A stretch of 24,296 nucleotides of DNA from an uncultured delta proteobacterium (GTDB taxonomy: Bacteria > Desulfobacterota > WTBG01 > CAIYCZ01): the NCBI GenBank assembly GCA_963803975.1, contig CAWDOY010000043.1, positions 1-24,296 on the forward strand, given 5' to 3'. Every line of letters begins with the position of its first letter. Position 1 is the first letter of the stretch. The notes under the pieces were generated by a model. It saw only the letters and a list, made by a program, of their open reading frames with translations, was not told where the DNA came from and did not search any database. Of the stretch, positions 1 through 16,073 are shown one piece after another. The translations under genes were made by a program, and so were the position numbers.

Positions 1-62
1 CATCTTATACTTGCAATGGATAAACACAAGTTTAGCGGTTAAGGAAAGTGGACAGAAGCAGG

Positions 63-215
63 GGACAAATACCAACATCTTGTGGTGAGTATTAACCATT
101 GAAAAGTGCAGCTTATGTATCAACAGCGAGAGTAGTTTAGCAGCTTAAATTCATTGATGACTTCTATTTGGAAAGCGTTAGTGGTAGTTCAAAAAAATAA
201 GCAGTCTGCATGAAT
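63..215 (-). repeat. Dispersed non-coding 'module A', copy 1 (downstream of the 699-aa gene)
   Basis: The reverse complement of 80-164 aligns without gaps to 15136-15220 (68/85 identical by hand count), with gapped similarity out to 215/15088. Positions 63-123 also match 2670-2729 as a direct repeat. Confidence 0.85.
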
Positions 216-447
216 ATTGTAACCTTAAGCCACCAAAATATATATATTGATGCAGAAAAGGCAGGGCCATTGCTGAGGCAGCCCGGCTAATCTTTAGCGC
301 CACCCCAGATGGCCACCCAAACTGCCCAGAATTAGGAATTGTGACCCGGCCACATTGGTTCAAAATATTCTTGCTATACTTGGTGATATGAGGTTTTATA
401 ATGCCTTAACGGGCGTTGTCCCCTTTGAAGCTTAATTCATCTGCCCG

Positions 448-2547
448 TCATTTCTTCACTCCAGCACGAAACAGTCCGAGTACCTGCGTCTTAAACGTGA
501 CCAGCCCCTGTGCCGCATCAACGACCGCATTGTCAACCTCGTCCCAGTCTTTGGTAAGATGATTATAAATATACGCTCCCACCGTGCCGGAGCCGACCAT
601 GCTCTTAGCATAGGGAATCGAGATGGTCACATCGCGGTTAAAAAAATTCCGGTACGGGCCAAAATGGACCGCTGGCCCTGCCGGCCGAGCGCTTTTCATG
701 GCCGGCGCGCCGAGCTGCCGACCGATGGTTATAACCGTGTCCTCCCAGAGGCAGTCCATGGTATCATTGGGGTCATTGACCGGTACGGCTGTTGCAAAGG
801 TGAACCCCTCCGGCCTGTCCGGATAGGGGTCAGGGGGAATATCGATACGGGCACCCTTAATCGGGCTGAACTGGCGGGTGACTTCCAGTGTGCCTCCGTC
901 AAGTTTTTTTACCAGCTCGCTTTTCTCAATCTTAATAAAGGTATTTCCCGGATACAGCCCGAAGCGCTCCAGGGTGCCGCGCAGCACCACATAGTAGCTC
1001 GTGGCAAACTCCTGCGTCAGATTGCTGTAGGAGGGTGCTATGGTAATTTCAGCCGCAGAGCCTGCGCTGTTGCAGGACGTCTGGTTTCCCTCAGCGTCCT
1101 CACAATAGGTGATATCAAATTTACCCGCTTCCATGTCCTGTCGCGGCACAAGGGGAAGATTGTTCATCTCGCGCATGTTAACGAGGTTGTCAGAGTTATC
1201 ATAGAGCCAGTGGCACGGAGCAATTATTATTTTATCAATGCCGTCTTCCTTCGCCCATTGCAGGGCCTGGCGGATACTGTAAAAATGCCCGGCAAGATCT
1301 TTCTCGGTTGACATGCCATAGGTAAAAAAGTTGTCTCGCATGAGATCGCTCTTTACCCCGCCCTTGGTAAACACCAGATTGTACCGGTCACCGAAGGCCT
1401 TCTGCATCGCCCGCTTCCACGAGAGGTAGTTCAAAAAGCCGTTTTCATGATAGACCTCCTTTTCCCAGGGATGCTGCGTGCCCATGGTCTTCGCGCTTGT
1501 CTCAACTCCCCAGGGCAGCCCCCTGGTCACATAGACGATGCCGATAGTGCTCCCTTCGGGATACTGTTCGATAAAGGGTTTCATGTTGATGATATTCAGG
1601 GCATTGAATTCAGGGGTTCTGCCGACCTGGCGGGTCTGGTAGATCTCAGTTTCGTTAAGCACGCCGAGCTCGCAGAGCTTCTCCCGCACATAGCCGCCTG
1701 ACATATAGTTATTTGCATAAAAATTATTGTCCGTGGTTTCGCGGGCGACAAGCAGCTTCCTGAAGCCTTCTTTTGCAAAATCCTCGGTTGTGTCAATTTC
1801 ATGCGGTGTATAACCGGAGATTCTTCCATAGGAACCGAAGCGCACGTCAATCCGGCTGCCAAATGAGTCCTCAAGCATCTGTTTCGTGTAGCTGCCGATC
1901 TGCCTGACATAGATGCTCTCAAGATACGCATCAGGCGGCTCTGTCGGGCCGCCGAGAATCCCGAACCTTCTTAAGAAACCGAGCGGGCCCTGCTCATATA
2001 GATCGCCGCTGCCATTAGGGAATGGCACGCTGCTATTGCCTATCTTGTACCATCCGGCAAGATGGTCTTTCCCGTCCCGCGGGTCAGGCGGCCAGCTGAG
2101 CACACCGGTCATCGCGCTTTTTGCTTCCACCACCGGAACTATGGGAACCGTGGGCGGTATCATGTCTGGAGTAAGCGAGGGGAGCTTTGGATCCATTGGT
2201 ACATACACACCGTCAACTAATTTATAGATACCTGAATTATCATATATCAACCCTCCACCCGGCATCTCACAGGTAAGGCCCATGGGCAGGAATCCGAGGT
2301 GGAGCTGGTAGGGAAACTCACCCACATGCCCTTCTTTGCAGGGCTGCCCCGGATACTGTGTCCGGTCGCCGACCCGGCACCATGCGTGACTGTCCCAGGC
2401 ATATTCAAAATTAAAACCCGCGGGAGCACCCCAGCTGGTTATGAGCACGGCGACTCTGTCTTTTACCGCAGCTCCATAGGCAAGGCTTGAGGAGAAGAGA
2501 AAAATAACGGCGAGGATAACTGGCGCATACATTTTTTTTGCTCTCAT
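448..2547 (-). CDS. Secreted protein with a ferrochelatase-like (class II chelatase) fold and C-terminal ZU5-like domain, 699 aa
   Basis: Long ORF with a GGAG RBS and an N-terminal signal peptide (…SLAYG/AA). Colinear chelatase-like motifs: VAVLITSWGAP, GIVYVTRGLP, IIIAPCHWLYDNSDNL. The C-terminus GGTLEV…GARIDIPP…GPAVHFGP…FNRDVTISIPY resembles ZU5. The gene call is secure; the fold call is by eye. Confidence 0.75.
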   Translation of the reverse strand: MRAKKMYAPVILAVIFLFSSSLAYGAAVKDRVAVLITSWGAPAGFNFEYAWDSHAWCRVGDRTQYPGQPCKEGHVGEFPYQLHLGFLPMGLTCEMPGGGLIYDNSGIYKLVDGVYVPMDPKLPSLTPDMIPPTVPIVPVVEAKSAMTGVLSWPPDPRDGKDHLAGWYKIGNSSVPFPNGSGDLYEQGPLGFLRRFGILGGPTEPPDAYLESIYVRQIGSYTKQMLEDSFGSRIDVRFGSYGRISGYTPHEIDTTEDFAKEGFRKLLVARETTDNNFYANNYMSGGYVREKLCELGVLNETEIYQTRQVGRTPEFNALNIINMKPFIEQYPEGSTIGIVYVTRGLPWGVETSAKTMGTQHPWEKEVYHENGFLNYLSWKRAMQKAFGDRYNLVFTKGGVKSDLMRDNFFTYGMSTEKDLAGHFYSIRQALQWAKEDGIDKIIIAPCHWLYDNSDNLVNMREMNNLPLVPRQDMEAGKFDITYCEDAEGNQTSCNSAGSAAEITIAPSYSNLTQEFATSYYVVLRGTLERFGLYPGNTFIKIEKSELVKKLDGGTLEVTRQFSPIKGARIDIPPDPYPDRPEGFTFATAVPVNDPNDTMDCLWEDTVITIGRQLGAPAMKSARPAGPAVHFGPYRNFFNRDVTISIPYAKSMVGSGTVGAYIYNHLTKDWDEVDNAVVDAAQGLVTFKTQVLGLFRAGVKK

Positions 2548-2570
2548 GTGAATACTCCTGTATTGGCTGT

Positions 2571-2680
2571 AAAATTGATATGAACTCGCTTTCGGATGAA
2601 GGAAGTATAGGCCGGTGATGATTGTGTGTCAATAAAAAATCCGTCGCAAAATATGGAGTGGGGTTGCCCGGACAAAAATC
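2571..2680 (-). repeat. 'Module B' promoter region, copy 1
   Basis: The reverse complement aligns without gaps to 13551-13660 (81/110 identical by hand count). Confidence 0.85.
2604..2632 (-). promoter_or_regulatory. sigma70-type promoter of the 699-aa gene
   Basis: Minus-strand TTGACA (2632-2627), 17-bp spacer, TATACT (2609-2604). Confidence 0.8.
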
Positions 2681-2729
2681 AACATCTTGTGGTGGGTATT
2701 ACAGGAAAAAAGTGAAGCTTATGTATCAA
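2670..2729 (-). repeat. 'Module A' partial copy 2, abutting module B
   Basis: GGACAAAAATCAACATCTTGTGGTGGGTATTA…AAAAGTGAAGCTTATGTATCAA matches 63-123. Its reverse complement shares the exact 18-mer CTGTAATACCCACCACAA with 15203-15220. Confidence 0.85.
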
Positions 2730-2772
2730 AGTGTGCAAAAGATTTAAAAAGCAACCCACCTTCCATACACGT

Positions 2773-2794
2773 GTTGACCAAACCGTTGACCAAA
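2773..2794. repeat. Tandem GTTGACCAAA x2 (12-bp period), possible integrase arm-type sites
   Basis: Exact 10-mers at 2773-2782 and 2785-2794, about 150 bp beyond the tRNA-Cys 3' end. The function is inferred. Confidence 0.5.
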
Positions 2795-2895
2795 ACCCTG
2801 CTGAAATAAAAAAGAGGTCACGCCGTATGACGTAGCCTGTTCACTTGCTTCCCCATTTAATTTTCTGTGACGCATAGTGACATTTATCAAGGAAC

Positions 2896-2938
2896 AAAAA
2901 AAGGGATGCCGCTGTGAAGAAAGCGTGCATCCCTTTTT
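2896..2938 (-). terminator. Rho-independent terminator after tRNA-Cys
   Basis: Perfect 12-bp inverted repeat AAAAAGGGATGC / GCATCCCTTTTT, with a U-tract on the minus strand. Confidence 0.75.
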
Positions 2939-2945
2939 AAATTCA

Positions 2946-3021
2946 TGGAGGCGGCGAGCGGATTCGAACCGCTGAATAAAGGTTTTGCAGACCTCCGCCT
3001 TAGCCACTTGGCTACGCCGCC
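2946..3021 (-). tRNA. tRNA-Cys(GCA)
   Basis: GGCGGCGTAGCCAAGTGGCTAAGGCGGAGGTCT-GCA-AAACCTTTATTCAGCGGTTCGAATCCGCTCGCCGCCTCCA folds into a full cloverleaf with U73 and an encoded CCA. Confidence 0.97.
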
Positions 3022-3031
3022 GAAATTAATT

Positions 3032-3106
3032 AACCGCTGAGAACACAAAGCGCGCAGAGAATATGTTTGCTGACAATCTCTGCCGCTTTCTGTGCCCGCT
3101 GTGGTT
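3032..3106. repeat. Imperfect palindrome built of 9-mer (nCGCAGAGn-like) units in the tRNA spacer
   Basis: Left arm AACCGCTGAGAACACAAAGCGCGCAGAGA (3032-3060); right arm TCTCTGCCGCTTTCTGTGCCCGCTGTGGTT (3077-3106). Confidence 0.7.
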
Positions 3107-3121
3107 TTGATTATAAAAAAA

Positions 3122-3196
3122 TGGAGCGGGAAACGGGATTTGAACCCGCGACACCAACCTTGGCAAGGTTGTACTCTACCACTGAGCTATTCCCGC
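3122..3196 (-). tRNA. tRNA-Gly(GCC)
   Basis: GCGGGAATAGCTCAGTGGTAGAGTACAACCTT-GCC-AAGGTTGGTGTCGCGGGTTCAAATCCCGTTTCCCGCTCCA folds into a cloverleaf with an encoded CCA. Confidence 0.97.
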
Positions 3197-3256
3197 TCTG
3201 ATGTATTATACTTATATTACTGCACTTTTTTTGTCAAATGAAAAGTTGCGGCATTA

Positions 3257-3284
3257 AACCGCAGAGAACGCTGAGAGCGCAGAG
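3257..3284. repeat. 9-mer tandem repeat arm CCGCAGAGA-ACGCTGAGA-GCGCAGAG
   Basis: Same unit family as 3032-3060; only one arm is present. Confidence 0.6.
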
Positions 3285-3321
3285 CAACTATATGGTTTAA
3301 CTATCCTTTTAAGTCCCAGCC

Positions 3322-3363
3322 CTTGACTCTTGAACCCTCGAACCCACTGACCCCTCGAACCCT
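3322..3363. repeat. Degenerate ~8-mer tandem repeat (CTCGAACC-like, about 5 units)
   Basis: CTTGACT-CTTGAACC-CTCGAACC-CACTGACCC-CTCGAACC, just past the pgsA stop. Confidence 0.6.
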
Positions 3364-3371
3364 GTCTTTTC

Positions 3372-3995
3372 TTACGCTATGCGAAAAAAGACCTGCCTGA
3401 AGAATTTCCTGAAGTAATCAATGCCCGACCAGACGGTTATAACCAGAGCGACCCAGAGGAGCCCCATGCCCACCTGATGAAAATTAATGAGCAGGTACGG
3501 GGATTCAATAAACAGATGGTATTCGTAGTGCAGGAGGAGGCAGGTGACCGATACAATCTGAAATACGGTCTTGTATTTACCCAGCTTGCTTGCTGCTATC
3601 ACCAGGCCTTCGGTGATGGCAACGACCCGCAACCCGGTCACCAGAATCTCCCTGCCGATAATCACCGCAACCATCCAGGAGGGGACCCGGCCAAGCGGTA
3701 TGAGCATTATCAGCGCAACGGCAACCAGCAGCTTGTCTGCCAGCGGGTCAAGAAATTTCCCCAGAGATGTCTCAAGATTCCAGCGCCGTGCTATATAGCC
3801 GTCAAGAAAATCGGTGAGCGATGCCAGAGCAAACAGCACTGAGGCGAGCAGGCTGAAAACTTTGGTGGGAAAATAGTAGAACAGGATAAAAAACAGGGGG
3901 GTCACCACGATGCGAAACAGCGTGAGCAGGTTGGGAATGGTGAACACACGGCTGCGGTTCTGTTCGGCAGTAATTTTCTGTGCTGCTGCATTCAT
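3372..3995 (-). CDS. pgsA: CDP-diacylglycerol--glycerol-3-phosphate 3-phosphatidyltransferase
   Basis: TIPNLLTLFRI and DFLDGYIARRWNLETSLGKFLDPLADKLL CDP-alcohol phosphatidyltransferase motifs. The ATG at 3995 overlaps the metG stop (ATGA). Confidence 0.95.
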   Translation of the reverse strand: MNAAAQKITAEQNRSRVFTIPNLLTLFRIVVTPLFFILFYYFPTKVFSLLASVLFALASLTDFLDGYIARRWNLETSLGKFLDPLADKLLVAVALIMLIPLGRVPSWMVAVIIGREILVTGLRVVAITEGLVIAASKLGKYKTVFQIVSVTCLLLHYEYHLFIESPYLLINFHQVGMGLLWVALVITVWSGIDYFRKFFRQVFFRIA

Positions 3996-5554
3996 GGTGT
4001 ATTGTTTTGTTCTATGCGCGGAAACAGCGCTGGTATTTTCCGGATTCTGGTCCCGGCCGTTACGGTCATCCACTGGCCGGCAGAGGAAAGCTTCTGCTCT
4101 TCGAGGCGTCCTTCGCCTCCGATGGCTTCCCACATGCTTTCACTTGATGCGGGCATGAACGGCCACAGCAGTACCGACACCAGCCTGAGCGCCTCAAGCA
4201 GGCAGCGCATGACGGTTGCCAGCCGCTCTTTTTTTGCAGCATCCTTTGCCAGCACCCAGGGGGCGGTAGCATCGATATATTTATTGAGTAAAGAGATAAG
4301 CTCCCAGATTGCGGTAAGGGCGCGGTTAAACGCAAGCTGGTTCATGTATTCAGCAACTGCCTTGAGCACGGCAGCCTGTTTGTCTTTGATCTCTTCGTCG
4401 CTCGCTTCAAGGCTGCCGCCCTGCGGCACGTCGCCGTTAAAATATTTATGCACCATGGCAATAACCCTGCTGAAGAGGTTGCCCAGGTCATTTGCCAGGT
4501 CACTGTTGATCCTGCCGACGATTGCCTGCCGGGAAAAATCAGCATCAAGGCCGAAGGGCACTTCCCGCATGAGAAAGTAGCGCAGCTGGTCAACGCCGTA
4601 CTCGTCAGCCAGTGCGTAGGGATCAATGGCGTTGCCCAGAGACTTTGACATCTTTTTACCCTCAATGGTCCAGAAGCCGTGGGCAAAAACCTGCTTTGGC
4701 AGGGGCAGCTCTGCTGCCATGAGCATGGCGGGCCAGTACACGCCATGAAACCTGACAATGTCCTTGCCCACGATGTGCACTTGAGCAGGCCAGAACGCCT
4801 GAAAGCTTTCGCCGCCGCCGCAGTAGTCAAGAGCGGAAATGTAATTGAGCAGCGCGTCAAACCAGACGTAGATGACGTGCTTCGGGTTTCCCGGAACCGG
4901 TATGCCCCAGGAAAAACTGGTGCGGCTGATGCTCAAATCCCGCAGACCTTCCCTGACAAAACTCACGATCTCATTATACCGCGATTCGGGCTGGACAAAT
5001 CCCGGATTTTCTTCGAGATACCTCAAAAGCTGCTGCTGGTATTTTGACATCCGGAAAAAGTAGCTCTCCTCGCGCAGCTTTTCCACCGGCCTGCGGCAGT
5101 CCTGGTTCGGACATTTGCCGTCAACGAGCTGGGTATCGGTCCAGAAGCTTTCACAGGGCACGCAGTACCAGTCCTCGTATTCGCCCCGGTAGATGTCCCC
5201 CTTTTCAACAAGCGTGCGGAAGAACTTCTGCACTGCCTCCTGGTGGCGGGCCTCCGAGGTGCGAATAAAATCGGTGTTAGCGATGTTGAGCCGTACCCAG
5301 AGGTTTTTAAAGCGCTGCATGACGCGGTCTGCAAGCTGCAGCGGCTCCTCTCCTGCCTCCCGGGCCGCCTTCTCCACCTTGATGCCGTGCTCGTCAGTGC
5401 CGGTGAGGAAAAATATCCGGTAGCCGGACAACCGCTGGTAGCGTGCCAGTACATCCGCGGCAACAGTGGTATAGGCATGGCCGATATGCGGCACATCATT
5501 GACGTAATAAATCGGCGTTGTTACATAAAAAGTCTTTTCCATTGTCGCCTTCAC
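3992..5554 (-). CDS. metG: Methionine--tRNA ligase (short form without C-terminal tRNA-binding domain)
   Basis: YVTTPIYYVNDVPHIGH (HIGH motif), KMSKS and a Cys knuckle. An alternative start is the ATG at 5542. Confidence 0.97.
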   Translation of the reverse strand: MKATMEKTFYVTTPIYYVNDVPHIGHAYTTVAADVLARYQRLSGYRIFFLTGTDEHGIKVEKAAREAGEEPLQLADRVMQRFKNLWVRLNIANTDFIRTSEARHQEAVQKFFRTLVEKGDIYRGEYEDWYCVPCESFWTDTQLVDGKCPNQDCRRPVEKLREESYFFRMSKYQQQLLRYLEENPGFVQPESRYNEIVSFVREGLRDLSISRTSFSWGIPVPGNPKHVIYVWFDALLNYISALDYCGGGESFQAFWPAQVHIVGKDIVRFHGVYWPAMLMAAELPLPKQVFAHGFWTIEGKKMSKSLGNAIDPYALADEYGVDQLRYFLMREVPFGLDADFSRQAIVGRINSDLANDLGNLFSRVIAMVHKYFNGDVPQGGSLEASDEEIKDKQAAVLKAVAEYMNQLAFNRALTAIWELISLLNKYIDATAPWVLAKDAAKKERLATVMRCLLEALRLVSVLLWPFMPASSESMWEAIGGEGRLEEQKLSSAGQWMTVTAGTRIRKIPALFPRIEQNNTP

Positions 5555-6402
5555 TTGGATGGCTGGGCAGGGGCAAGCATTTCGGGCTTGAATTCATCTG
5601 CATTCATCTCGACAATGTGGCCATCTTCCATTTCTATCAGAATTTTCTGGGTGATGACATTGACCTGCCTGATTTTCCCGGTTCCCTGGGAGGTGGTGAT
5701 CCTTTTTCCGATTTTGGGCAGGTTCTTTTTCAGCTCTGCATAGGTTTCATATTCGTATGACAGGCAGCACATGAGCCGGCCGCAGACGCCGGATATTTTT
5801 GCCGGGTCCAGAGCCAGACCCTGCTCCTTGGTCATTTTAATGGTAACCGGGCAGAACTGATGCAGAAATGACGTGCAGCACAGCTCGCGGCCGCAGCAGC
5901 CGATCCCTCCCAGTATCTGCGCCTCATTGCGCGCGCCGATCTGGCGCATCTCGATGCGCGTGCGCAGATCAGCTGCCAGCTCTTTGACCAGCGAGCGGAA
6001 ATCAACCCGGTTTTCCGCGGTAAAGAAAAAGATGATTTTGCTCCCGTCAGGCACAATCTCCACATTGATCAGCTTCATGGGCAGGTTATACTCGGCAATC
6101 TTTTTCCGGCAGACCTGGGCATATTCACGCTCTTTCAGAATATTCAGCTCCTCCTGCCGGATATCGATCTGCTCGGCCTTCCTCAGCACCTTGTTGGCAG
6201 CAGGGGACGATGATGCAGCGCAGCAGCGGTGCGCCGGCCGGGGCACCACGACCCCCAGCTGCTGGCCTGATTCTGTTTCCACGATAATCTTGTCACCGAT
6301 ATTCAGGTGCAGCTCGCCGGCGTCGCAGTCAAAAACTCTTCTCTGTTTTCTCAGTTTTATACTTCTCATTGTGTCCATGATTGGTTCCGTATGCTCATTC
6401 AT
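5551..6402 (-). CDS. ricT: PSP1-domain / RicT (YaaT) family protein
   Basis: FFFTAENRVDFRSLVKEL, RIEMRQIGAR, GGIGCCGRELCC, KISGVCGRLMCCL; conserved holB-ricT-metG context. Start is 6402 or a nearby downstream ATG. Confidence 0.9.
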   Translation of the reverse strand: MNEHTEPIMDTMRSIKLRKQRRVFDCDAGELHLNIGDKIIVETESGQQLGVVVPRPAHRCCAASSSPAANKVLRKAEQIDIRQEELNILKEREYAQVCRKKIAEYNLPMKLINVEIVPDGSKIIFFFTAENRVDFRSLVKELAADLRTRIEMRQIGARNEAQILGGIGCCGRELCCTSFLHQFCPVTIKMTKEQGLALDPAKISGVCGRLMCCLSYEYETYAELKKNLPKIGKRITTSQGTGKIRQVNVITQKILIEMEDGHIVEMNADEFKPEMLAPAQPSK

Positions 6403-6406
6403 AGGG

Positions 6407-7375
6407 TTATGCGGTCTGCATGAACATGCTTTCAAGCGCCATGGTGTAGTTAATATTGAAGGCGCCGTGGGCATACATCCACTGCAGCTTTTTCTGTTTT
6501 TGCACGATGCTCTGTCTGGTTTCAGACTTCAGCGCCTCATGCAGCTTATCCAGCACATCCTGGTTGTAAAGCTTTTTTTCCGGGAACCCCTCCAGCAGCA
6601 GCACCAGGTCACGGTACCAGGTCTGCAGGAATTCCAGCACCCGGGGAATCTCCTGCGGGTCCTCGGCAGCAATCTTCGCCAGATGAAACAGGGATTCACT
6701 GGTGCCGGATGCGTGACCGACAACATGCTGCACCAGTTTGTTGCGCTTTGCCAGAAAGTCTGTCTCGCTCAGGAGCAGCGCCCGCTGCAGGCTTCCCTGG
6801 GCAAGGGCCGCAGCGAGCCGGGCTTCTTCCGGCTCTGCCCCCCGTGCCAGAAGAAAATCAATAATAGCCGCATCAGGCAGCGGCGCGAAACGAATTCGCT
6901 GGCAGCGCGACACGATGGTGGGCAAAAGAGTCATGGCAGCATGCGCCACGAGGATAATGACCGTGTCATCGGGGGGCTCTTCCAGGGTTTTGAGCAGGCA
7001 GTTTGCTGCATGCAGGTTCAGCTTTTCTGCCTGATCAATAATGATCACCTTCCGGCGGCCCTCCATGGGCTTGTAAATAATCTTTTTTTGCAGATCCCGC
7101 ACCTGTTCAATCCGGATGACATTTTTGTCCGGTTCTATATAAAAAAAGTCAGGATGCACGCGCTTTTCAATTTTATGACACGAGAGGCAGTCGTCACAGA
7201 AATCTGCTTCCCGCATCCCGCAGTTCAGGGCTTTGGCAAGAGAGACGGCAGTGCTGCATTTGCCGATCCCCTCAATACCTGAAAAAAGATAGGCATGCGC
7301 GATATGGCCGCTTGCGAGGGCGGTTTGCAACTGCCGTACGGGCAGCTGCTGTCCGGAAATAGCATCAAACGGCAT
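6407..7375 (-). CDS. holB: DNA polymerase III subunit delta'
   Basis: HAYLFSGIEGIGK, CxxCxxC zinc motif, HPDF, AANCLLKTLEEPP, LLPTIVSRCQ; lies downstream of tmk. Confidence 0.95.
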   Translation of the reverse strand: MPFDAISGQQLPVRQLQTALASGHIAHAYLFSGIEGIGKCSTAVSLAKALNCGMREADFCDDCLSCHKIEKRVHPDFFYIEPDKNVIRIEQVRDLQKKIIYKPMEGRRKVIIIDQAEKLNLHAANCLLKTLEEPPDDTVIILVAHAAMTLLPTIVSRCQRIRFAPLPDAAIIDFLLARGAEPEEARLAAALAQGSLQRALLLSETDFLAKRNKLVQHVVGHASGTSESLFHLAKIAAEDPQEIPRVLEFLQTWYRDLVLLLEGFPEKKLYNQDVLDKLHEALKSETRQSIVQKQKKLQWMYAHGAFNINYTMALESMFMQTA

Positions 7376-8021
7376 AGCCTTTTTCCCTTAGTTTTTCAGT
7401 GATATTGGAGCAGATCTTTTCGTGTACTGCATCCACGGAAAGCCCGGCGTCAACGATGCGAAAGCGTTCCGGCTCACGGCGGGCAAGCTGCAGATAGCCT
7501 TCCCGGACCCGCTCATGAAACGTTAGCTCCTTGTCTTCAAACCGGCCTTCAGCCTGCTCTTTGCCCTCAAGCCTGATCCGTCGGCGTGACCGGTTCAGTC
7601 CGAGCTCAGCAGAGCAGTCGAGCAGTATGGTCAGATCCGGGGCCAGGCCCTGTAAAAACATGCTGTGCACTTTTTCTATCAGCGGCAGGAGAATGCCTTC
7701 GCCGTAGCCCTGATAGGCTACGGTTGCATCAAAAAAGCGGTCACAGAGCACCATGGTGCCGCTGCTCAGGGCCGGGTTTATAATCTGCTGCAGATGCTGG
7801 ACCTTGGAAGCGGTGTAGAGAAGAAGCTCAGTCAGGGGGATAATATCCGTGTTTTTTGAACTGAGCAGTATCTTTCTGATCTCGTCTCCAATTGGGGTGC
7901 CGCCGGGTTCCCTGGTGATGATGAAGGGAAGATTCTGCTGTTTTAAAAAATCTCCCGCACGCGATATCTGGGTCGTTTTGCCGCACCCTTCGATTCCCTC
8001 AAATACTATAAAAAGTCCCAT
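7365..8021 (-). CDS. tmk: Thymidylate kinase
   Basis: FIVFEGIEGCGKTTQ, TREPGGT, CDRFFDATVAYQG, PDLTILLD. Confidence 0.97.
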   Translation of the reverse strand: MGLFIVFEGIEGCGKTTQISRAGDFLKQQNLPFIITREPGGTPIGDEIRKILLSSKNTDIIPLTELLLYTASKVQHLQQIINPALSSGTMVLCDRFFDATVAYQGYGEGILLPLIEKVHSMFLQGLAPDLTILLDCSAELGLNRSRRRIRLEGKEQAEGRFEDKELTFHERVREGYLQLARREPERFRIVDAGLSVDAVHEKICSNITEKLREKGYAV

Positions 8022-8048
8022 AACTAAAATCCTGCCGGAGCCTGACCG

Positions 8049-8605
8049 CTATGCGCGCCGGGCACCATACTGATCAAAGAACACGAATTCTTCAGCGGCC
8101 CTGCGCTTCGGCGGCCGTCCTTCTTCATCAGGAATCCCCAGCGGCAACAGTTCCACAACCTCAACCGCTGGCAGGAACATTTAAAATCTCTTTTACCTTC
8201 GCGGGTGTCAAAAAAGCCCACATGGACTGTCCCCAGCCCCCGGGAATAAGCGGCAAGCGTCAGGTTCTGCAGAGCAAGTGCTGTGTCAAACATCAGCCAG
8301 TCGCCCTTGTCAGTAGCAGGCGCTGCCTTAAAATAGCCGGCCTTTTCCTTGTGCGCGCAGGCGACAATGACAACCGGGACCTGGGCAAAAGCAGGTCGCG
8401 CGGGATTTGCTTCAGGAAGAGTCTCGGCAAGGCGCTTGCGCAGTTCAAAATCCCGCACCACAATAAATTCAAAGCACTGGGTGTTTGCCCAGGACGGCGC
8501 CCACCGTGCTGCCTCAAGGATGAACTGCAGGTCTTCATCAGAGACCGCTGCCTGTTTGTATTTGCGAATACTGCGTCTGCCCTTGATCGCCTCCATCACT
8601 TCCAT
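8049..8605 (-). CDS. Nitroreductase family protein (two apparent +1 frameshifts, probably sequencing errors)
   Basis: RRSIRKY and EAARWAPSWANTQ motifs, with a GGAG RBS before the ATG at 8605. Removing one base at 8203-8205 and one at 8165-8166 restores AKVKEILNVPASVEVVELLPLGIPDEE… to a TAG at 8049 (184 aa). Confidence 0.85.
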
Positions 8606-8627
8606 GGCTTTTCTCCCCGGCAATAAA

Positions 8628-8668
8628 AACCGCAAAGACACAAAGTGCGCGCGGTGAACCTGGCGGTT
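8628..8668. repeat. Collapsed 9-mer-family palindrome (AACCGC…GCGGTT ends)
   Basis: AACCGCAAAGACACAAAGTGCGC…GGCGGTT resembles the left arm at 3032-3060. Confidence 0.5.
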
Positions 8669-8783
8669 ATCTTAAAAAATGATTTAAAAACGGATAATTA
8701 TCTTTTGCCTGTAACAGTAGTAACAAAAATGGTTTATTGTGTCAAGGCACAGTTCTCCCTCAAGGGGATCGGATTAAAAAACC

Positions 8784-8813
8784 TTGACACTGGAAAAGGC
8801 CGTGTGTTACTTT
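8784..8813 (+). promoter_or_regulatory. Putative sigma70 promoter of the mutase-subunit/meaB/mce operon
   Basis: TTGACA (8784-8789), 18-bp spacer, TGn-TACTTT (-10 at 8808-8813). A divergent TTGACA lies at 8745-8740. Confidence 0.5.
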
Positions 8814-8948
8814 TTGCAAACTTTGTTTTTTATATGTCCTATAGAAATGTTGAGAACGGATTTTTAAGAGATTGCTTAGAATTTAGATAGAAGCATCGAG
8901 ATTTATTAAGTCCGTATAGTTGGTCGCATTATACAAGCGGGAGGTAGC

Positions 8949-9347
8949 ATGGGAAAAGACACAATAGTACGAGTAATGGTTGCCAAACCCGGTCTTGACG
9001 GCCATGACCGGGGGGCAAAGGTTATAGCCCGGGCGCTCAGGGATGCGGGCATGGAGGTCATTTACACCGGGCTGCGCCAGACCCCGGAGCAGATTGTAAC
9101 CGCTGCCCTTCAGGAAGACGTGGATGCGCTTCTTTTGAGCATACTGTCCGGAGCCCACAATCACCTGTTCCCCCGCATCACCCAGCTGCTCCGGGAAAAA
9201 GGAGCAGAGAATATCCTGGTGATTGGCGGCGGTGTTATTCCTCAGGATGATATCCCGGGGTTACAGCAGGCCGGGATCAGGGAGGTTTTCGGCCCGGGAA
9301 CATCTACGGAGTTCATTGTCAACTACGTCAGGGAGAACGTTACCTAA
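8949..9347 (+). CDS. Cobalamin-binding small subunit of a methylmalonyl-CoA mutase-type acyl-CoA mutase
   Basis: [16 protein letters not shown] (DxHxxG), SILSGAH, GGGVIP; GGAGG RBS. Confidence 0.93.
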
Positions 9348-9374
9348 CAACTGTTTCCCGCCCATCACTCCTGC

Positions 9375-10316
9375 ATGACTATCATCGAAGGCGTATTAAA
9401 AGGCAACATCCGGGACATTGCCCGGCTCATCACGATTGTGGAAAATGAACTGCCGGAGGCAACCGCGGCCATGCAGTCCATTTTTCCCCATACCGGCAGT
9501 GCTTACACCATCGGCTTCACCGGCCCTCCCGGAGCAGGCAAAAGCACGCTGGTTGATAAGATCACCCTGCAGCTCTGCCGGCAGGGGAAAAAGATCGGGA
9601 TTGTCGCCATTGACCCGTCGAGCCCGTTTTCCGGCGGCGCGCTGCTTGGCGACCGCATACGGATGCGCGACATCATCACCGAGAAGGATGTATTCATCCG
9701 CAGCGTCAGCACCCGGGGCAGCATGGGTGGGCTTTCGCGCGCAGCAGGAGATATTGCTAAAATCCTTGATGCCGCGGGGAAGGACGTTGTGATCATAGAG
9801 ACGGTAGGCGTTGGGCAGGACGAGGTTGATATATTTAAAACAGCAGACACCTCGGTGCTGGTCCTGATGCCCGGAGCAGGCGATGACATCCAGTCAATAA
9901 AGGCCGGCATCATGGAGATTGCCGATATCTTCGTGGTCAACAAGGCTGACCGGGAAGGAGCTGACGGACTGATTACTTCCATCAGGCAGATGCTTGACTT
10001 GAACACCAAGCCCGGCCCCTGGCGGCCGCCGATTATAAAGACCTCTGCCACCCAGAATGAAGGAATAGATGAACTGCTCAAGGCGGTGCAGGAGCACCGG
10101 GAGTTTCTCACCATTTCCGGCTCTCTTGCCGCCAGAAGAAAAGAGCGGCTCCGCACCGAAATCATCAGGCTTGTGGAGCGCAGGGTTTCACGCCTTGTCC
10201 AGTCACAGATTAAACAGAACGGCCGCTTTGAAAAGCTGGTGGAAAAAGTAGCGGCCCGCGAAGAAGACCCGTACAGCTGCGTGGAGCGGATAGTGGCACC
10301 GCTTGAGGAAGAATAA
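9375..10316 (+). CDS. meaB: Methylmalonyl-CoA mutase-associated GTPase MeaB
   Basis: GFTGPPGAGKST, DPSSPFSGGALLGDRIRM, ETVGVGQDE, VVNKAD. Confidence 0.95.
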   Translation: MTIIEGVLKGNIRDIARLITIVENELPEATAAMQSIFPHTGSAYTIGFTGPPGAGKSTLVDKITLQLCRQGKKIGIVAIDPSSPFSGGALLGDRIRMRDIITEKDVFIRSVSTRGSMGGLSRAAGDIAKILDAAGKDVVIIETVGVGQDEVDIFKTADTSVLVLMPGAGDDIQSIKAGIMEIADIFVVNKADREGADGLITSIRQMLDLNTKPGPWRPPIIKTSATQNEGIDELLKAVQEHREFLTISGSLAARRKERLRTEIIRLVERRVSRLVQSQIKQNGRFEKLVEKVAAREEDPYSCVERIVAPLEEE

Positions 10317-10407
10317 ATGACAAATGTCAAAGCTCAAATGACAAATGCAAGATGTCTGTTTTGGTATTTGGATTTCATTTGGCATTTGGATTTTGAACTT
10401 CGAACTT
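10315..10407. repeat. Inverted pair of 7-mer tandem arrays (AAATGAC)n … (ATTTGG[C/T])n
   Basis: AAATGAC-AAATGTC-AAAGCTC-AAATGAC-AAATGC, followed by TTTGGTA-TTTGGA-TTTCA-TTTGGCA-TTTGGA-TTTTGAA-CTTCGAA. Confidence 0.75.
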
Positions 10408-10465
10408 TTTAATTCAGGATTTCGAAATTAAAATTTAGGATTTATTTCATGAAAAGGAGAAGACT

Positions 10466-10868
10466 ATGAAGGTACTGAAAATTGATCACATTGGTATTGC
10501 GGTAAAGAATATGGACGAGGCGCTCAAGCTCTATCAGGATGTGCTGGGGCTGAAGCTGGCTGCACACGGAAGTGGTGGAAGAGCAGAAGGTGAAGGTCGG
10601 GTTTATACCGGTCGGTGACAGCGAAATCGAACTGCTGGAATCAACATCCCCTGACGGGCCGGTGGCAAAGTTCATCGAAAGCCGCGGGGAGGGGGTCCAG
10701 CATATAGCGCTGCGCGTTGATAATATTGAGCAGGCACTTGAAGAGCTGAAAGCAAAAGGTTTCCGGCTCATTGATGAGAAGCCGCGCTACGGAGCGGGCA
10801 AGGCGCGCATAGCCTTCCTCCACCCCAAAGGCACCGGCGGAATATTGCTGGAGATTTCAGAACGATAA
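10466..10868 (+). CDS. mce: Methylmalonyl-CoA epimerase (one apparent +1 frameshift)
   Basis: [13 protein letters not shown] with an AGGAG RBS. Removing one G at 10558-10559 joins it to [12 protein letters not shown]…IELLE…[11 protein letters not shown]…FLHPK (133 aa). Confidence 0.92.
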
Positions 10869-10894
10869 CAAGCTGAACAGCATCCGGAATATAC

Positions 10895-10920
10895 GAGCAG
10901 CTCCTTATGAGCTGCTCTTT
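10895..10920 (+). terminator. Putative terminator hairpin between converging mce and PNPOx genes
   Basis: GAGCAGCTC-CTTAT-GAGCTGCTC perfect 9-bp stem followed by TTT; it overlaps the PNPOx stop codon. Confidence 0.5.
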
Positions 10921-11336
10921 CCTCCCACCTCAGCAATCAGTATCCGGCGCACGGGAGACTGCTTTGGATTGGCCGCGTATTTCTCTGCCATCTTATCGTA
11001 TAAATTCTTATCATAACCCAGCTTCAGGGCCAGTTCCCTGAAAGCCCGCCTGATGTCTGCCGGGACCATGACCCGCTCCATGGTTCCTTCCACGATGACC
11101 GCTTCCCAGTTTGCGAGCTCATTATCAGCGGTGCATAGTTTGAATGCAGCCTTTTTATTGTTTTTAAAGCAGCGCGCCATCCTGCCGGCAGGGTTGAAAA
11201 TGACATACAGGTACTTCCCGAGAACTGTGTACGCCACCTCGACACCGTAAGGCTTTTTGCCATCAACCCCCATCAGGGTGCCCCATTTTCTCTCTTTAAG
11301 AATCTTTGCGATCTCTTTTTTCGGCAATACCTTCAT
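10905..11336 (-). CDS. Pyridoxamine 5'-phosphate oxidase-like (NimA-type split-barrel flavin-binding) protein
   Basis: EIAKILKERKWGTLMGVDGKKPYGVEVAY…WEAVIVEG pattern; GGAGG RBS. Confidence 0.8.
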   Translation of the reverse strand: MKVLPKKEIAKILKERKWGTLMGVDGKKPYGVEVAYTVLGKYLYVIFNPAGRMARCFKNNKKAAFKLCTADNELANWEAVIVEGTMERVMVPADIRRAFRELALKLGYDKNLYDKMAEKYAANPKQSPVRRILIAEVGGKSSS

Positions 11337-11360
11337 TATGCAGCCTCCCGATCATAGTAA

Positions 11361-11511
11361 CAGGCTGTTGAAAAACGCCCATCTGCTGCGTTGCGCTCAT
11401 CCTTCGTCATTGCGACGTACGATAATGTACGACTCATTCCTCAGGATTTCGCGCGCCTTGCATCTGGATGTTTTTGACCAGCCTGGGAATAATTACTTTT
11501 TTAACAACCTG
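11361..11511. mobile_element. MITE-like non-autonomous element with terminal inverted repeats
   Basis: Left end CAGGCTGTTGAAAAA (11361-11375). Inverted partners at 11471-11485 and 11497-11511 (13/15 each). Internal palindrome CGTAC-N6-GTACG. No transposase. Confidence 0.7.
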
Positions 11512-11522
11512 CAAATAGAACA

Positions 11523-12077
11523 TTATCCCCTGCGCTGCCAGGTGACTTTGAAGACCCCGTCGCGCACCGCACTGTAGGTCATCTTGTCCGGGGCAATTTC
11601 AATGACCCGGTAATTGAATTGCGGGGGAAGCTCTGTCACTCCCATGAGCTTCAGGGCATCGAGCACTTTCATGCGCTTCAGGGCGAGCTCAAACCGGCGC
11701 GGGTCAGTTTGCTTGCTGTACACCCTGGCTTTGCCCCACGCCTGCAGGCCCCGCGCGCCCCAGAAATCCTCTTCCGGTCGATACGGCGCGGCAATGGAAA
11801 AGGAAACGTTTTTATTATCCTTCAGGTTGTTAAATTTACCGCCCCCCTCGGATAGAATATAAAAGGTGAACCCGTCGTACAGGCGGTATTCAAGGGGCGT
11901 GGTGCGCGGGATATCGTTTTTCGTGGTGCTCAGGTGCAGCACATTATTGCCCGCGAGAAATTTTTTCATCTCGCGCTCAAACGCAGCCGCGGTTTTAAAG
12001 GTCTTAATGGTAATGCCTGACTGTTTAAAAACCGGGATGATTGAAGACGGTACTTTCTGATGTTTTATGACTGCCAT
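11523..12077 (-). CDS. Pyridoxamine 5'-phosphate oxidase family protein
   Basis: KKFLAGNNVLHLSTTKNDIPRTTPLEY…KFNNLKDNKNVSFSI…GLQAWGKA; GGAGG RBS before the ATG at 12077. Confidence 0.8.
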   Translation of the reverse strand: MAVIKHQKVPSSIIPVFKQSGITIKTFKTAAAFEREMKKFLAGNNVLHLSTTKNDIPRTTPLEYRLYDGFTFYILSEGGGKFNNLKDNKNVSFSIAAPYRPEEDFWGARGLQAWGKARVYSKQTDPRRFELALKRMKVLDALKLMGVTELPPQFNYRVIEIAPDKMTYSAVRDGVFKVTWQRRG

Positions 12078-12268
12078 AGTCCCTCCTGAAAGCATTGCTG
12101 TTGATGTTGCCGCCATATAAAACATAGTATATGCTGCTGAGCATTGCAAGCACTATCAGTGTCGCAGCCAAGCGGACCTGATAGTACTATTAATAATTTC
12201 AATACTGCATGGCTGTCATATAGAAATTACCTATTTGAAATTATACGACTAAATAGCTCACATTGGAA

Positions 12269-12337
12269 AAATCTGGAACTCATGAAATCAGGAAAATTAC
12301 CCGCTTTTCTCATCGTGAGTTCCTGAGTTCCAGATTT
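12269..12337. repeat. ~68-bp palindromic element built of GGAACTCA 8-mers, copy 1
   Basis: AAATCTGGAACTCA…TGAGTTCCAGATTT perfect 14-bp terminal inverted repeat; homologous in inverted orientation to 16009-16073. Confidence 0.8.
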
Positions 12338-12378
12338 GCTTGAGCTTTCGTTGTGGTTATTTATAAAGAGGTATTCGC

Positions 12379-13449
12379 ATGAAAAACATTTTTGCTTCCC
12401 GGGGCGCAATAGCTGTTGCCGGGCTCATTATCGGAAGCGGTGCGGCGCTGATGCAGAAGCTCGGCAATCCGCCCAATATGGGCATCTGTGTTGCCTGCTT
12501 TGAGCGGGATATTAGCGGCGCGATCGGATTGCACCGGGCCGCCGTTGTGCAGTATATCCGGCCTGAAATCATCGGGCTGGTGCTGGGCGCGCTGCTTGCC
12601 GCCCTTGTCTTCAGGGAGTTCAAGCCGCGCGCAGGTTCAGCGCCGCTGGTGCGTTTTGTCCTCGGCTTTTTTGCCATGGTGGGGGCGCTGGTATTTCTCG
12701 GCTGCCCGTGGCGGGCAATGCTGCGGCTGGCCGGAGGAGATGGAAATGCCATTGTCGGGATAGCCGGGCTTGCCGCCGGTATCTGGACCGGCATTCTGTT
12801 CATCAAGTCGGGCTACAATCTGGGCAGAAACCAGAAGACCTATGCATCAGCGGGCTTAATCCTGCCGGTCATTATGGTCGGGTTATTGATTCTGCTTATT
12901 CTGCAGCCCAAGTTTGAATCAGGCGCACTGTTCTTCAGCGAAAAGGGGCCCGGCTCAATGCACGCTCCGATTGTAATAAGCCTGTTCTTCGGCCTCATGG
13001 TCGGCATAATTGCCCAGCGCACACGGTTCTGCACCATGGGCGCGATTCGCGATATGATACTGGTGCGCGACTATTACCTGGCAGCCGGCGTTGCAGGCCT
13101 TCTGCTCGGTGCCTGCATAACCAATATCCTGCTGGGGCAGTTCAATCCCGGGTTTATTGGTCAGCCCATTGCCCAGACCAACCAGCCGTGGAACTTTTTG
13201 GGCATGGCCCTGGCCGGACTTGCCTACGCGCTTGCCGGCGGCTGTCCCGGCAGGCAGCTGTTCCTCTCCGGTGAGGGAGACGGCGATGCAGCGGTGTTTG
13301 TCCTGGGCATGATGGTCAGCGCCGGGTTTGCCCATAATTTCGGGGTTGCCAGCAGCCCGCAGGGCGTGGGCCCGTGGGGGCCGCTGTTTGTGGTTATCGG
13401 GCTTGCCGCGTGCCTGATGATAGGGTTCACCATGCGGCAAAAGATTTGA
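12379..13449 (+). CDS. yedE: YedE family putative selenium/sulfur metabolism membrane protein
   Basis: GNPPNMGICVACFERDI, QYIRPEIIG, FLGCPWR, QRTRFCTMG, GGCPGRQL; many hydrophobic segments. Confidence 0.9.
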   Translation: MKNIFASRGAIAVAGLIIGSGAALMQKLGNPPNMGICVACFERDISGAIGLHRAAVVQYIRPEIIGLVLGALLAALVFREFKPRAGSAPLVRFVLGFFAMVGALVFLGCPWRAMLRLAGGDGNAIVGIAGLAAGIWTGILFIKSGYNLGRNQKTYASAGLILPVIMVGLLILLILQPKFESGALFFSEKGPGSMHAPIVISLFFGLMVGIIAQRTRFCTMGAIRDMILVRDYYLAAGVAGLLLGACITNILLGQFNPGFIGQPIAQTNQPWNFLGMALAGLAYALAGGCPGRQLFLSGEGDGDAAVFVLGMMVSAGFAHNFGVASSPQGVGPWGPLFVVIGLAACLMIGFTMRQKI

Positions 13450-13550
13450 GTATTTACCAGCGCGCAGTAAAAATTGAGAGTCTTGGTGTTTAATATAAGG
13501 CTACCATATCAGACCTCCTGTGCGCCATACGTTTTTTAAAACGACGCGCC

Positions 13551-13660
13551 GTTTTTTGTCCGCAAACCCCGTTCCCACATCTTGCGACGGCTTTATTATT
13601 GACACGCAACCGCCCCCAGCCTATACTTAACCCATCTAAAAGTGAGTTCCTGTCAATTTA
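13551..13660 (+). repeat. 'Module B' promoter region, copy 2
   Basis: Ungapped 81/110 match to the reverse complement of 2571-2680. Confidence 0.85.
13599..13627 (+). promoter_or_regulatory. sigma70-type promoter of the esterase gene
   Basis: TTGACA (13599-13604), 17-bp spacer, TATACT (13622-13627). Confidence 0.8.
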
Positions 13661-13709
13661 AACCAGCCTTCAGTTTACTGTTAGCTGAGGCTTTCCCCTG
13701 GGAGGCAAG

Positions 13710-14931
13710 ATGAAAAATAAAAAGGCAGTGTTATGTGCACTGGTGTTTTTTTTTATTGCTATCGCTTCCTGCTCAGCACTATTTTTTAAGAGTTCCGGAT
13801 GTGGAGACGGCAGTACGTTTACTACCGGTGAGCATAAAATCATATCAAACGGAATTGAAAGAATATTCTATGTAAAGCTCCCGGAAAATTATAATTCCAA
13901 CACTTCTTACCCGCTCATTTTCGGCTTCCACGGATTTACCAGCGACTATACGGTTTTCACTGAAGGAGACATTGACCTGCAGGAGGTTGTGGGCGATGAA
14001 GCCATTTTAGTGTATCCCAATGCGCTTGGCATAAATGGTGAGCCGCAATGGGATTATGAGAGCGACCTGATCTTTTTTGATGACCTTTACGCTGAGCTTG
14101 AAGCAAACCTTTGTTTTGATAGAAGCAAAGTATTTGCTGTCGGTCACAGCAACGGTGCCGGTTTTACCCATACGCTTGGCTGTAAAAGGGGAAATGTACT
14201 CAGAGCTATTGGTCCGGTGTCCGGCTTCTTTTCAGACTATGATGCGTGCACCGGTCAGGTAGCCGTGATTATGATACATGGAAACAGCGATACTACTATA
14301 CCTCTAACAGGAATTAAGCCCACGCGTGACTACTGGATAGCAATAAACAGCTGCAAAAAAGGGGAAACACCTGGTGGCGTTGATCCTGCTTGTGTGGCAT
14401 ATGCTGATTGTGACCCTCAATTCCCCGTTACATTTTGCGAGCATACCGGAGGACATGCATGGCCCGATTTTGCAAGTACTGCTATTTGGGGGTTCTTTAA
14501 AAGCCTTTTGCCAGCGGCCCCTTCAGACAAAACCGGTCATGGAGATGTCGGGAATCTGGGTAAAGGTTCCGTCAGTTTCAAAATACACTATCCCTCTGAT
14601 TTTGTGGGGACGCCTGAAAAGCTTGCGGTTTCTCTGTATCCGCCCGGTTCGACGCTGCCGCTGTCTGGATCTCCTAACTATATATTAAATATGGACGTCC
14701 CTCTGGGTGATTACACAGTTTGGTGAAGTTACAGAATACAATAATGCAGAGATTAACCTGCTGGGTGTGGACTATGGTGACTATGCGATGGCAGTAAACA
14801 TTTATGTTGCAGGAGGCAACTATCCCATACCAACCAGTGGAAAAGATTATATGGGGTTGCAAAATATTACTATAAACAGCAACACAATCGCAGTAGCGAC
14901 ACCTTTTGCATTAGAAGTTTTGGTATATTAA
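13710..14931 (+). CDS. Secreted/lipoprotein alpha/beta-hydrolase (PHB depolymerase/feruloyl esterase-like) with extra C-terminal domain; one apparent +1 frameshift
   Basis: Signal peptide, YPLIFGFHG, GHSNG nucleophile elbow, HGNSD, GGHAWP. ORFs 13710-14726 and 14707-14931 join by removing one base near 14714-14721 (406 aa). Confidence 0.8.
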
Positions 14932-15087
14932 TAAAACGCAGATTCCCGTATGCGCCTGTACGTGAACGGCTGATGCGATCATGCTATTTCTGTTGATACA
15001 CATCTTCATAATATAAAGTCTATTACTGGGATTGTGACCTCCAATACCTTCCTGGGTTGCATTGTTAGCTATGTATAAATCATAAAA

Positions 15088-15220
15088 ATTCATGCTTTCT
15101 ATGATTTTTTTGACTGCCAGTCATGCTTTGCAGATGAAGTGTGCAATGAATTTAAGCTGCCAAACTTCTATCGCTGCTGATACATAGTCTGCAGCTTTCT
15201 TTCTGTAATACCCACCACAA
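15088..15220 (+). repeat. 'Module A' copy 3 (downstream of the esterase)
   Basis: CAATGAATTTAAGCTGC…TCGCTG.TGATACATA…TAATAC.CACCACAA, shared with the reverse complement of 80-215. Confidence 0.85.
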
Positions 15221-15302
15221 CGTCTGGCACGAAATCTACACTTTTAAATCCCCATCTTTCGTAACCCCTTTGATGTACTTGCTAAAATAAATCGAGCCTA
15301 CC

Positions 15303-15907: not shown

Positions 15908-16008
15908 GGATATATACGGATGCTGTTGTTTCCTGAAAGTGTTTCTTGACCCTGACCTGGACAAGCCGGAACCAAAATTAACGGCAAAGACTAAAAAAGA
16001 AAGATTTT

Positions 16009-16073
16009 ATTTGGAACTCAGGAACTCACAAAAGTAAAAACAAAAATTTCCTGATTTCTTGAGTTCCAGATTT
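16009..16073. repeat. GGAACTCA palindromic element, copy 2
   Basis: TTGGAACTCAGGAACTCAC…TTTCCTGATTTCTTGAGTTCCAGATTT matches the reverse complement of 12269-12337 except in the loop. Confidence 0.8.

Follow-up and report, generated by a model that had tools for sequence, protein, structure and literature searches.

Integron arrays are polarised; they have a distinct head site and internal sites that repeat, and their cargo can be exchanged. The DNA considered here, positions 1 to 24,296 of contig CAWDOY010000043.1 from an uncultured delta proteobacterium (24,296 nucleotides (nt), hereafter the window), contains two repeated non-coding sequences, A and B, that lie around cargo genes. Arrays built on A resemble integrons in that they are polarised, their head is distinct, their internal sites are repeated and their cargo is exchangeable. 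They differ from integrons in having no integron integrase and no attC-like bottom-strand fold, in cassettes that bring their own promoters, and in being bounded by transposon ends.

Two further systems are close. The translocatable unit of the insertion sequence (IS) IS26 consists of cargo plus one IS copy and inserts beside an existing copy without a new duplication (PMC4196232). Similarly, the A arrays have unique segments separated by directly oriented copies, and the unit would be cargo plus one copy. Unlike in IS26 arrays, however, the separator is a non-coding fusion of two truncated ends of about 180 nt and not a whole IS, there is no transposase gene (A is non-coding and contains none of the IS6 family), the copies are about 75-85% alike, and environmental accessory genes are carried at dozens of chromosomal sites. 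TIMEs, the nearest described non-autonomous cargo carriers, have 38-base-pair (bp) ends and AT-rich targets with a 5-6-bp duplication (PMC4133298). The A elements share with them the lack of a transposase, the inverted ends, the AT-rich targets with a short duplication and the mobilised cargo; they differ in ends of about 170 nt, TGTAA termini, a 7-bp duplication and internal polarised cassette arrays.

Judged by their sequences, A and B are two separate things, pieces of two different mobile-element ends: A reads as the inner part of one end of a transposase-less, cargo-carrying element family, and B as the right end (oriIS) of an IS91-family transposon, a known kind of end. For the whole account, in which transposon ends, junction exchange by host recombination and an IS91 oriIS act together, we estimate a probability of about 0.6. 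The A arrays point to an undescribed gene-shuffling system built from transposon ends; the literature searched, outside which most subscription papers lie, contained no description of an A-type element. Arrays of translocatable units are described mostly for resistance plasmids, where whole copies of IS26 or ISCR form the framework; in this uncultured lineage, a non-coding junction of 180 nt seems to take that part at many sites in the chromosome, and the junction arrays appear to shuffle surface proteins and enzymes between strains.

Two mobile-element ends

In the following, G000 is the window's own genome (57 contigs) and G001 a same-genus relative; C numbers are contigs and L numbers fetched loci. 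The class comparison set comprises 42 genomes and the phylum sample 151, all of them fragmented assemblies, and loci L015-L017, which duplicate G001 loci, were left out of separate counts. A was followed by an iterated genome search, by a 180-position A model and by separate left-end and junction models. We call the left end a head, the right end a tail, and a truncated tail fused to A a junction.

The preliminary description of the window reported two unrelated genes for secreted proteins between shared flanks. Recomputation and an independent repeat search both reproduce the repeats: B at 2571-2680 (reverse strand) matches 13551-13660 at 81 of 110 ungapped positions, and the A core at 80-164 (reverse strand) matches 15136-15220 at 68 of 85. 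A abuts B without a gap, with the seam at 2677-2680, and the two proteins, one of 699 amino acids (aa) and one an esterase, are indeed unrelated (best BLASTP E = 1.0). The modules themselves had been drawn too short: the left A copy is real but covers 73-250 plus a hairpin at 261-285, and the second B copy reaches upstream to about 13479. The esterase gene is present, but broken over two frames. The features that concern A, B and their cargo are as follows.

1..72, minus strand: start of the next cargo block, with a leader of a type that recurs after A, cut by the contig end; the same leader stands after A at C45, C25, C35 and C3
73..195, minus strand: A copy 1, the inner ~120 nt of a left end, with the inner palindrome at 73-82 and the invariant TGATACATA block near 115-123 (nhmmer E 4e-30)
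196..250, minus strand: truncated right end, an inverted copy of A's inner ~55 nt with the inner palindrome at ~229-249, fused to A to form a junction (junction model)
261..285, minus strand: terminator-like hairpin before the right end, recurring ahead of many junctions and tails
448..2547, minus strand: 699-aa cargo gene, hydrophobic N-terminus (open reading frame, ORF)
2574..2677, minus strand: B copy 1, the final ~105 nt of an IS91-family right end (oriIS) and the CAAT target (profile and alignment)
-35 at 2632, -10 ending at 2604: predicted outward promoter of B copy 1 (consensus match)
2680..2729, minus strand: A copy 3, a partial left end that starts at the invariant block and is fused to B (model positions 73-123, E 2e-8)
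13479..13657, plus strand: B copy 2, an IS91-family right-end derivative of ~180 nt with no A ahead (alignment to the intact element of L102)
13599-13627, plus strand: predicted promoter of B copy 2 (consensus match)
13710..14931, plus strand: feruloyl-esterase-like cargo gene in frames of 338 aa and 74 aa (PDB 8jh8, E 5e-36)
15086..15227, plus strand: A copy 2, a junction-type module without the outer right-end palindrome, inner palindrome at ~15218-15227 (nhmmer E 2e-32)
15226..15247, plus strand: stub of a second recurring leader, resembling A's last 50-nt module (sequence)

A copy 1 is colinear with the ends that head arrays, and the junction model matches window 285-180 (E 1e-17). The leader at 1..72 shares 58 nt at 91% with contig C128 of G001; no other contig end overlaps it, so no continuation of the window's left array was found.

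Profile searches of G000 returned 52 A matches (40 near full length, best E about 1e-34) and 36 B matches (29 near full length, best E about 1e-28). The additional copies that had been predicted thus exist, and they track gene ends in a single orientation instead of being placed at random. A is nearly indel-free across its copies and is non-coding, with about 2 stops per 39 codons in every frame and no codon-position signal; since all six frames contain stops, a coding relic is ruled out. Three settings can be told apart: head, tail and internal junction. The head is about 170 nt long, and A is its inner 120 nt. The tail, which follows the cargo and a terminator-like hairpin, is homologous to the head in inverted form, and the internal junction consists of the tail's inner ~55 nt joined to A. 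When 50 A matches in G000 were typed, 16 proved to be junctions and 5 heads; of the 20 tails detected, 13 have a co-oriented A upstream, at no more than 8 kilobases (kb).

Heads and tails align, imperfectly, as inverted homologues over ~170 nt. Both ends begin with TGTAA when read inward, although several termini have decayed. Exact 7-bp target duplications are present at C50 (TTTAATG) and C25 (GCTTATT), and a head-tail pair on C187 of G001 has a duplication of 6 of 7 positions. Four linked head-tail pairs have readable termini (two exact duplications, one of 6/7, one none), and in two further linked pairs the tails are decayed or cut. A blind search from 36 left ends recovered exact duplications in two, the same C50 and C25, where swapped flanks gave an expectation of 0.11. 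Across 26 outer flanks, T occupies position 3 in 21 and A position 5 in 19, that is, a symmetric target.

The family assignment is drawn from the ends and duplications only, because no transposase with these ends was found in any locus examined. 5'-TGT termini with further conserved inner boxes are described for IS3, IS481 and IS1202, and IS1202 subgroups duplicate 5-6, 16-17 or 27-28 bp (10.1101/2022.12.17.520857). The A elements likewise start with 5'-TGT at both ends and have inner conserved boxes; unlike IS1202, they show a duplication of 7 bp. Tn7-like and IS21 elements are TGT-ended as well. The inner palindrome may resemble an NrdR box; inspection by eye showed no such box ahead of the ribonucleotide reductase gene. 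With its ends, its 7-bp duplication and the crossover block described below, the family is defined closely enough to seek an autonomous parent.

For B, the assignment comes from intact elements. In G011 (L101) and G020 (L102), 445-aa transposase genes (PF04986 plus PF14319) are followed by B about 120 nt past the stop. B copy 2 of the window aligns with the intact right end of L102 over ~180 nt (score 105, shuffle maximum 32), and B copy 1 does so over ~105 nt (score 69, shuffle maximum 35). In G000, two A copies and one B copy stand behind C-terminal fragments of an IS91-type transposase; a class search with one such fragment gave 34 distinct C-terminus matches, 16 followed by B and 2 by A. 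The terminus of B is a TTCCTAT-like motif; in 19 of 30 copies CAAT comes next, and the sequence beyond is unrelated. On L101 (C150 of G011), a whole transposase-oriIS, an M36 peptidase gene and a transposase tail with a second oriIS form an ISCR-like tandem.

The oriIS of ISCR1 contains TTCCTAT (PMC13023784), ISCR1 ends bear outward promoters (PMC6218425), IS91-family elements insert beside a tetranucleotide without target duplication and can transpose from one end (PMC13181058), and right-end miniatures of IS801 exist, most genomic fragments being judged rearrangement products (PMC3189936). B agrees with these elements in its place behind a Y2 HUH transposase gene wherever the element is intact, in its TTCCTAT-like terminus, in the preferred tetranucleotide that follows, in its predicted outward promoter and in the persistence of orphan right ends. 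It departs from them in that CAAT (ATTG when read on the opposite strand) predominates as the tetranucleotide, where the known ones are CTTG/GTTC, in that 13 of 33 copies sit fused behind the end of an unrelated element, and in that the transposase is absent from G000. The PF04986 transposase was found in neither G000 nor G001, as against 13 of the 42 class genomes. B in G000 is a derivative and not an intact IS, and only C-terminal fragments of the transposase are present; neither a terIS nor an autonomous copy was found in that genome. Other IS91 subtypes were considered as carriers of A and rejected, since A was not found on them.

The preliminary description had treated B-gene-A as one chassis and the A|B seam as the joint of head-to-tail or circularised cassettes. 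B follows 13 of 46 A right ends, A lies downstream within 4 kb of 12 of 33 B copies in G000, and A flanks both sides in 7 of 33. Cassette exchange is supported, but the B-gene-A unit is not; the unit would be cargo plus A. The seam reads as a left transposon end fused to that oriIS. These counts also bear on the idea that IS91-type one-ended rolling-circle transposition from B built the arrays and took A and the cargo upstream with it, in the way ISCR1 moves the 3' segment of integrons. Such a process would make use of what B is, an oriIS, for which one-ended transposition (PMC13181058) and right-end miniatures (PMC3189936) are documented; the tandem on the G011 contig and the transposase tails ahead of two A copies fit it as well. 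However, 33 of the 46 A right ends have no B, there are arrays without any B, the swaps map inside A and not at the oriIS end, IS91 gives no target duplication (PMC13181058), and no Y2 transposase is present in G000 or G001. We consider this route quite improbable.

B carries TTGACA-17-TATACT, which matches the sigma-70 consensus at 11 of 12 positions, and the gene after B is co-oriented in 31 of 33 cases, so that its outward promoter probably supplies whatever gene lies downstream. The promoter, the co-oriented genes, the other promoter-like leaders that follow A and the possible likeness of the inner palindrome to an NrdR box would also suit the alternative raised at the outset, namely that A plus B is one upstream regulatory region reused by many genes. 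A regulatory side role is possible. As an account of origin, this alternative is largely refuted and in our view highly improbable, considering that it leaves the inverted tails, the TGTAA termini, the target duplications and the IS91 origin of B unaccounted for.

Cargo exchange inside the junction

In G000 (49 matches), 17 of 18 pairs of adjacent A copies point the same way, the exception being a tail read backwards, and the same holds for 26 of 26 pairs in the 23 metagenome loci from which polarity was read. Between cargo blocks, the fused right-end/left-end junction recurs in one orientation. It could be argued that the arrays are a graveyard, in which independent insertions of miniature elements pile up in variable islands and cargo differences reflect unrelated deletions and rearrangements. 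The decay of cargo such as the split esterase, the other element ends that follow A and the position of the esterase unit at a synteny break instead of a clean empty site are all consistent with this, and most IS801 fragments were judged rearrangement products (PMC3189936). However, independent insertion into a palindromic target would not yield 43 of 44 co-oriented neighbours, nor one recurring junction structure, and cargo blocks that are nearly identical and have A at their edges turn up at different sites. This explanation is thus unlikely.

Among 142 distinct A copies, 7 pairs share flanks upstream only, 10 downstream only and 0 on both sides. Counting from the right end of A, pairs that share the upstream flank mismatch at 0.07-0.22 from -130 to -50, compared with 0.33-0.47 for random pairs, and then return to baseline. 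Pairs that share the downstream flank stay at baseline to -50 and from -30 on mismatch at 0.29, 0.14 and 0.07, compared with 0.48, 0.30 and 0.32 for random pairs. The mismatch curves cross at -50 to -40, which is the invariant TGATACATA block. Cargo thus appears to be exchanged inside the junction, centred on this block; one clean crossover is disfavoured because residual mismatches lie on both sides of it.

A linkage switch so sharp around one invariant 10-nt block raises the possibility that exchange is enzyme-driven and site-specific, acting at that block or at the inner palindrome through a recombinase, or through the cognate transposase in an IS26-like targeted conservative reaction, which would make the system integron-like. 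Several partial copies, including window 2680-2729, begin at the same point of the invariant block; A is nearly free of indels, its orientation is strict and heads differ from internal junctions; and in a sister family, the inner palindrome lies between inverted arms like an empty core. On the other hand, pairs that share a flank still differ on their own side (0.15-0.22 upstream, 0.14-0.29 downstream), no strand-specific fold of A is conserved (over 24 copies, mean z is 0.0 on one strand and -0.05 on the other, with a few single copies folding), and G000 has only three tyrosine-recombinase matches, no resolvase and no IS110. We hold site-specific exchange to be a tentative alternative, at odds clearly below even. 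A broader form of it is comparably doubtful: the family may have turned its own ends into an integron-like platform, in which an enzyme recognises the junction as a dedicated site where single-gene cassettes are exchanged, at dozens of positions in the chromosome, the captured oriIS is a portable promoter and the enzyme acts in trans. If a dedicated enzyme does exist, this would be a new cassette system.

As the preliminary description had stated, no mobiliser is encoded nearby. The tyrosine recombinases (PF00589) of G000 are a XerC-like gene beside hslVU, a probable XerD and one fragment, none of them beside A. Resolvases are absent from all five genomes searched, G000 among them, and IS110 is absent from G000, which holds a broken IS21 and an IS6-like gene. 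None of the eight Y1/RAYT matches in G000 lies within 3.8 kb of A or B, and none of the transposase or integrase loci fetched, with rve, rve_3 and DDE_Tnp_1 among the families considered, carries the ends of the element. Searches for TnsA and Mu-C gave no match, but their controls were equally blank. Two known site types were tried and rejected: an integron attC system, in view of the absence of an integrase beside A and of a strand-specific hairpin, and a Xer/dif module with XerC/XerD arms around a 6-8-bp spacer, for which a dif-type pattern matched G000 once, on C36, and at no A.

Cargo was, as predicted, swapped between related genomes, and the esterase unit provides the example. The two genes that border it, and the tRNA-Cys gene near the other copies of A and B, are as follows.

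12379..13449, plus strand: YedE-type membrane gene, left neighbour of the esterase unit (PF04143)
15365..15907, minus strand: rfbC, right neighbour of the esterase unit (PF00908)
2946..3021, minus strand: tRNA-Cys gene, whose flank is a variable site (neighbours differ in G001, G002 and G003)

An array in G001 with three A and three B copies holds the esterase unit, with 92.6% and 88.7% identity, and the homology stops at window 15220, the right end of A. The rfbC gene of G001 adjoins an AAA/DUF4143 gene, with no A there; a search for yedE in G001 and G002 found none, and the yedE of G003 has other 3' neighbours. The esterase unit therefore lies at a synteny break and not at a clean empty site, and the check that had been proposed, an empty yedE-rfbC site, gave no such site, since neither G001 nor G003 has the two genes side by side. 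The comparison of the tRNA-Cys site, also proposed, did show a flank that varies among the three relatives. G002 has an esterase of 74% identity without A and without B, which reads through as a single frame of 409 aa; in the G001 copy, an internal stretch is deleted. Within G000, a 1-kb block is duplicated at 96%, and its limits are inner palindromes. Among contigs from public sequencing runs, one spans yedE-B-esterase and one departs from the window just after the yedE stop; public RNA runs shared at most 0.20 of the sequence words.

We propose the following mechanism. By its sequence, the A family is a non-autonomous cargo transposon with inverted ends of ~170 nt, TGTAA termini and a 7-bp duplication, which a DDE-type transposase acting in trans would have placed. 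Within an element, one fixed junction, in which the shortened right and left ends are joined, separates the cargo blocks and always points the same way; flank linkage indicates that the blocks are gained, lost and exchanged by crossovers inside the junction, around the invariant TGATACATA block. By analogy with the IS26 translocatable unit, one cargo block plus one junction may loop out and roll in at another copy, and the exchange is probably done by host homologous recombination. In one cassette lineage, the B oriIS became fused behind A; it also occurs alone, and would give a promoter to what lies downstream.

Several observations weigh against this mechanism. No transposase with these ends occurs in any locus examined, and no right end was detected in the g11 sister family. 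In G000, 29 of the 50 A matches were not typable as head or junction, and 7 of the 20 tails have no co-oriented A within 8 kb. The linked pair at L053 has readable termini and no duplication, and 34 of the 36 left ends are without one, most being cut by locus ends or having a decayed tail. The linkage analysis comprises 17 pairs that are related and not independent. A single empty site was found, on one side only (C5:1649 versus C44 of G001), and the proposed search for cargo circles gave no circle joint in the assembled contigs of three public runs (X1-X3). The A copies are only about 75-85% alike, which is low for homologous recombination. Finally, since the assemblies are fragmented, some swaps may be mis-joins at the repeat.

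Distribution, cargo and other observations

With the 180-position model, A is present in 6 of the 42 class genomes (G000 53, G001 37, G002 7, G018 4, G013 1, G005 1), and the 151 phylum genomes added one weak outside match only. The left-end model reaches 17 of the 42, strongly in G000-G002 and in all five genomes of genus g11, with two weak matches outside the class among the 151. A pattern scan of metagenomes gave 55 A matches in 54 loci; plasmids, phages and viral contigs gave none. The lineage occurs in sediment and freshwater sequencing runs. In the g11 sister family, a hairpin centred on the inner palindrome is often what closes this end, and at loci L296-L315 (G013, G014, G017, G020), some genomes have insertion sites in common. 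A-linked stretches at L004 (C630 of G018) and L058 (C448 of G002) are 89% and 95% identical to G000 across family or genus lines, which suggests transfer or a binning error.

The cargo had been described as exported, and this holds as a common tendency, not as a rule. In metagenome loci and those of relatives, 26 of 131 ORFs near A have surface-type domains by manual count (9 Lcl_C, plus PKD, TSP_3, FG-GAP, LRR and others); 4 of 131 are mobile-element proteins of unrelated kinds, and the remainder are enzymes, regulators, host genes and unassigned ORFs. The claim is limited to a tendency because signal peptides are not enriched near A in G000 (6/42 versus 331/2898, p = 0.47) by a crude heuristic with rough start calls. 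The 699-aa protein of the window has no Pfam match and no PDB sequence match better than E 0.36; its best matches in G001 reach 66-68%, and pieces of its gene together with its flanks are present in runs X1 and X3.

Other arrangements were seen around A. Locus L182 has a P4-type integrase beside a tRNA gene, directly followed by a complete left end, A and B. On C40 of G000, 11121-15040 and 51110-55079 form a large inverted duplication with a left-end remnant at each inner edge. Directly behind the left end of the largest array (L011:8900-10466, C35 of G000) are two tandem DUF1670 genes, which were considered as a mobiliser candidate but not found in G001 and which offer no functional lead; the literature searched did not mention the DUF1670 family. 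At L018:4306-4585 in G001, a gene, presumably RAYT-like from its N-terminus, starts after tRNA-Cys where G000 has the partial A and B. In the window, a short direct repeat lies at 2773-2795, between tRNA-Cys and the partial A, which we take to resemble the end of an integrative element; a similar short repeat stands ahead of A at C45:96.8 kb, where it follows the tRNA-like 3' end of another sequence.

Elsewhere in the window, Rfam matched only the two tRNAs and, below its threshold, one further sequence. The gene for the alpha subunit of ATP synthase at 19055-20585 is split into two frames (313 aa and 242 aa), possibly by an assembly error. Other high-copy non-coding repeats, unrelated to A and B, lie at 11360-11510, 12267-12337 and 15950-16090, and many copies of them are present in G000, G001 and G002.

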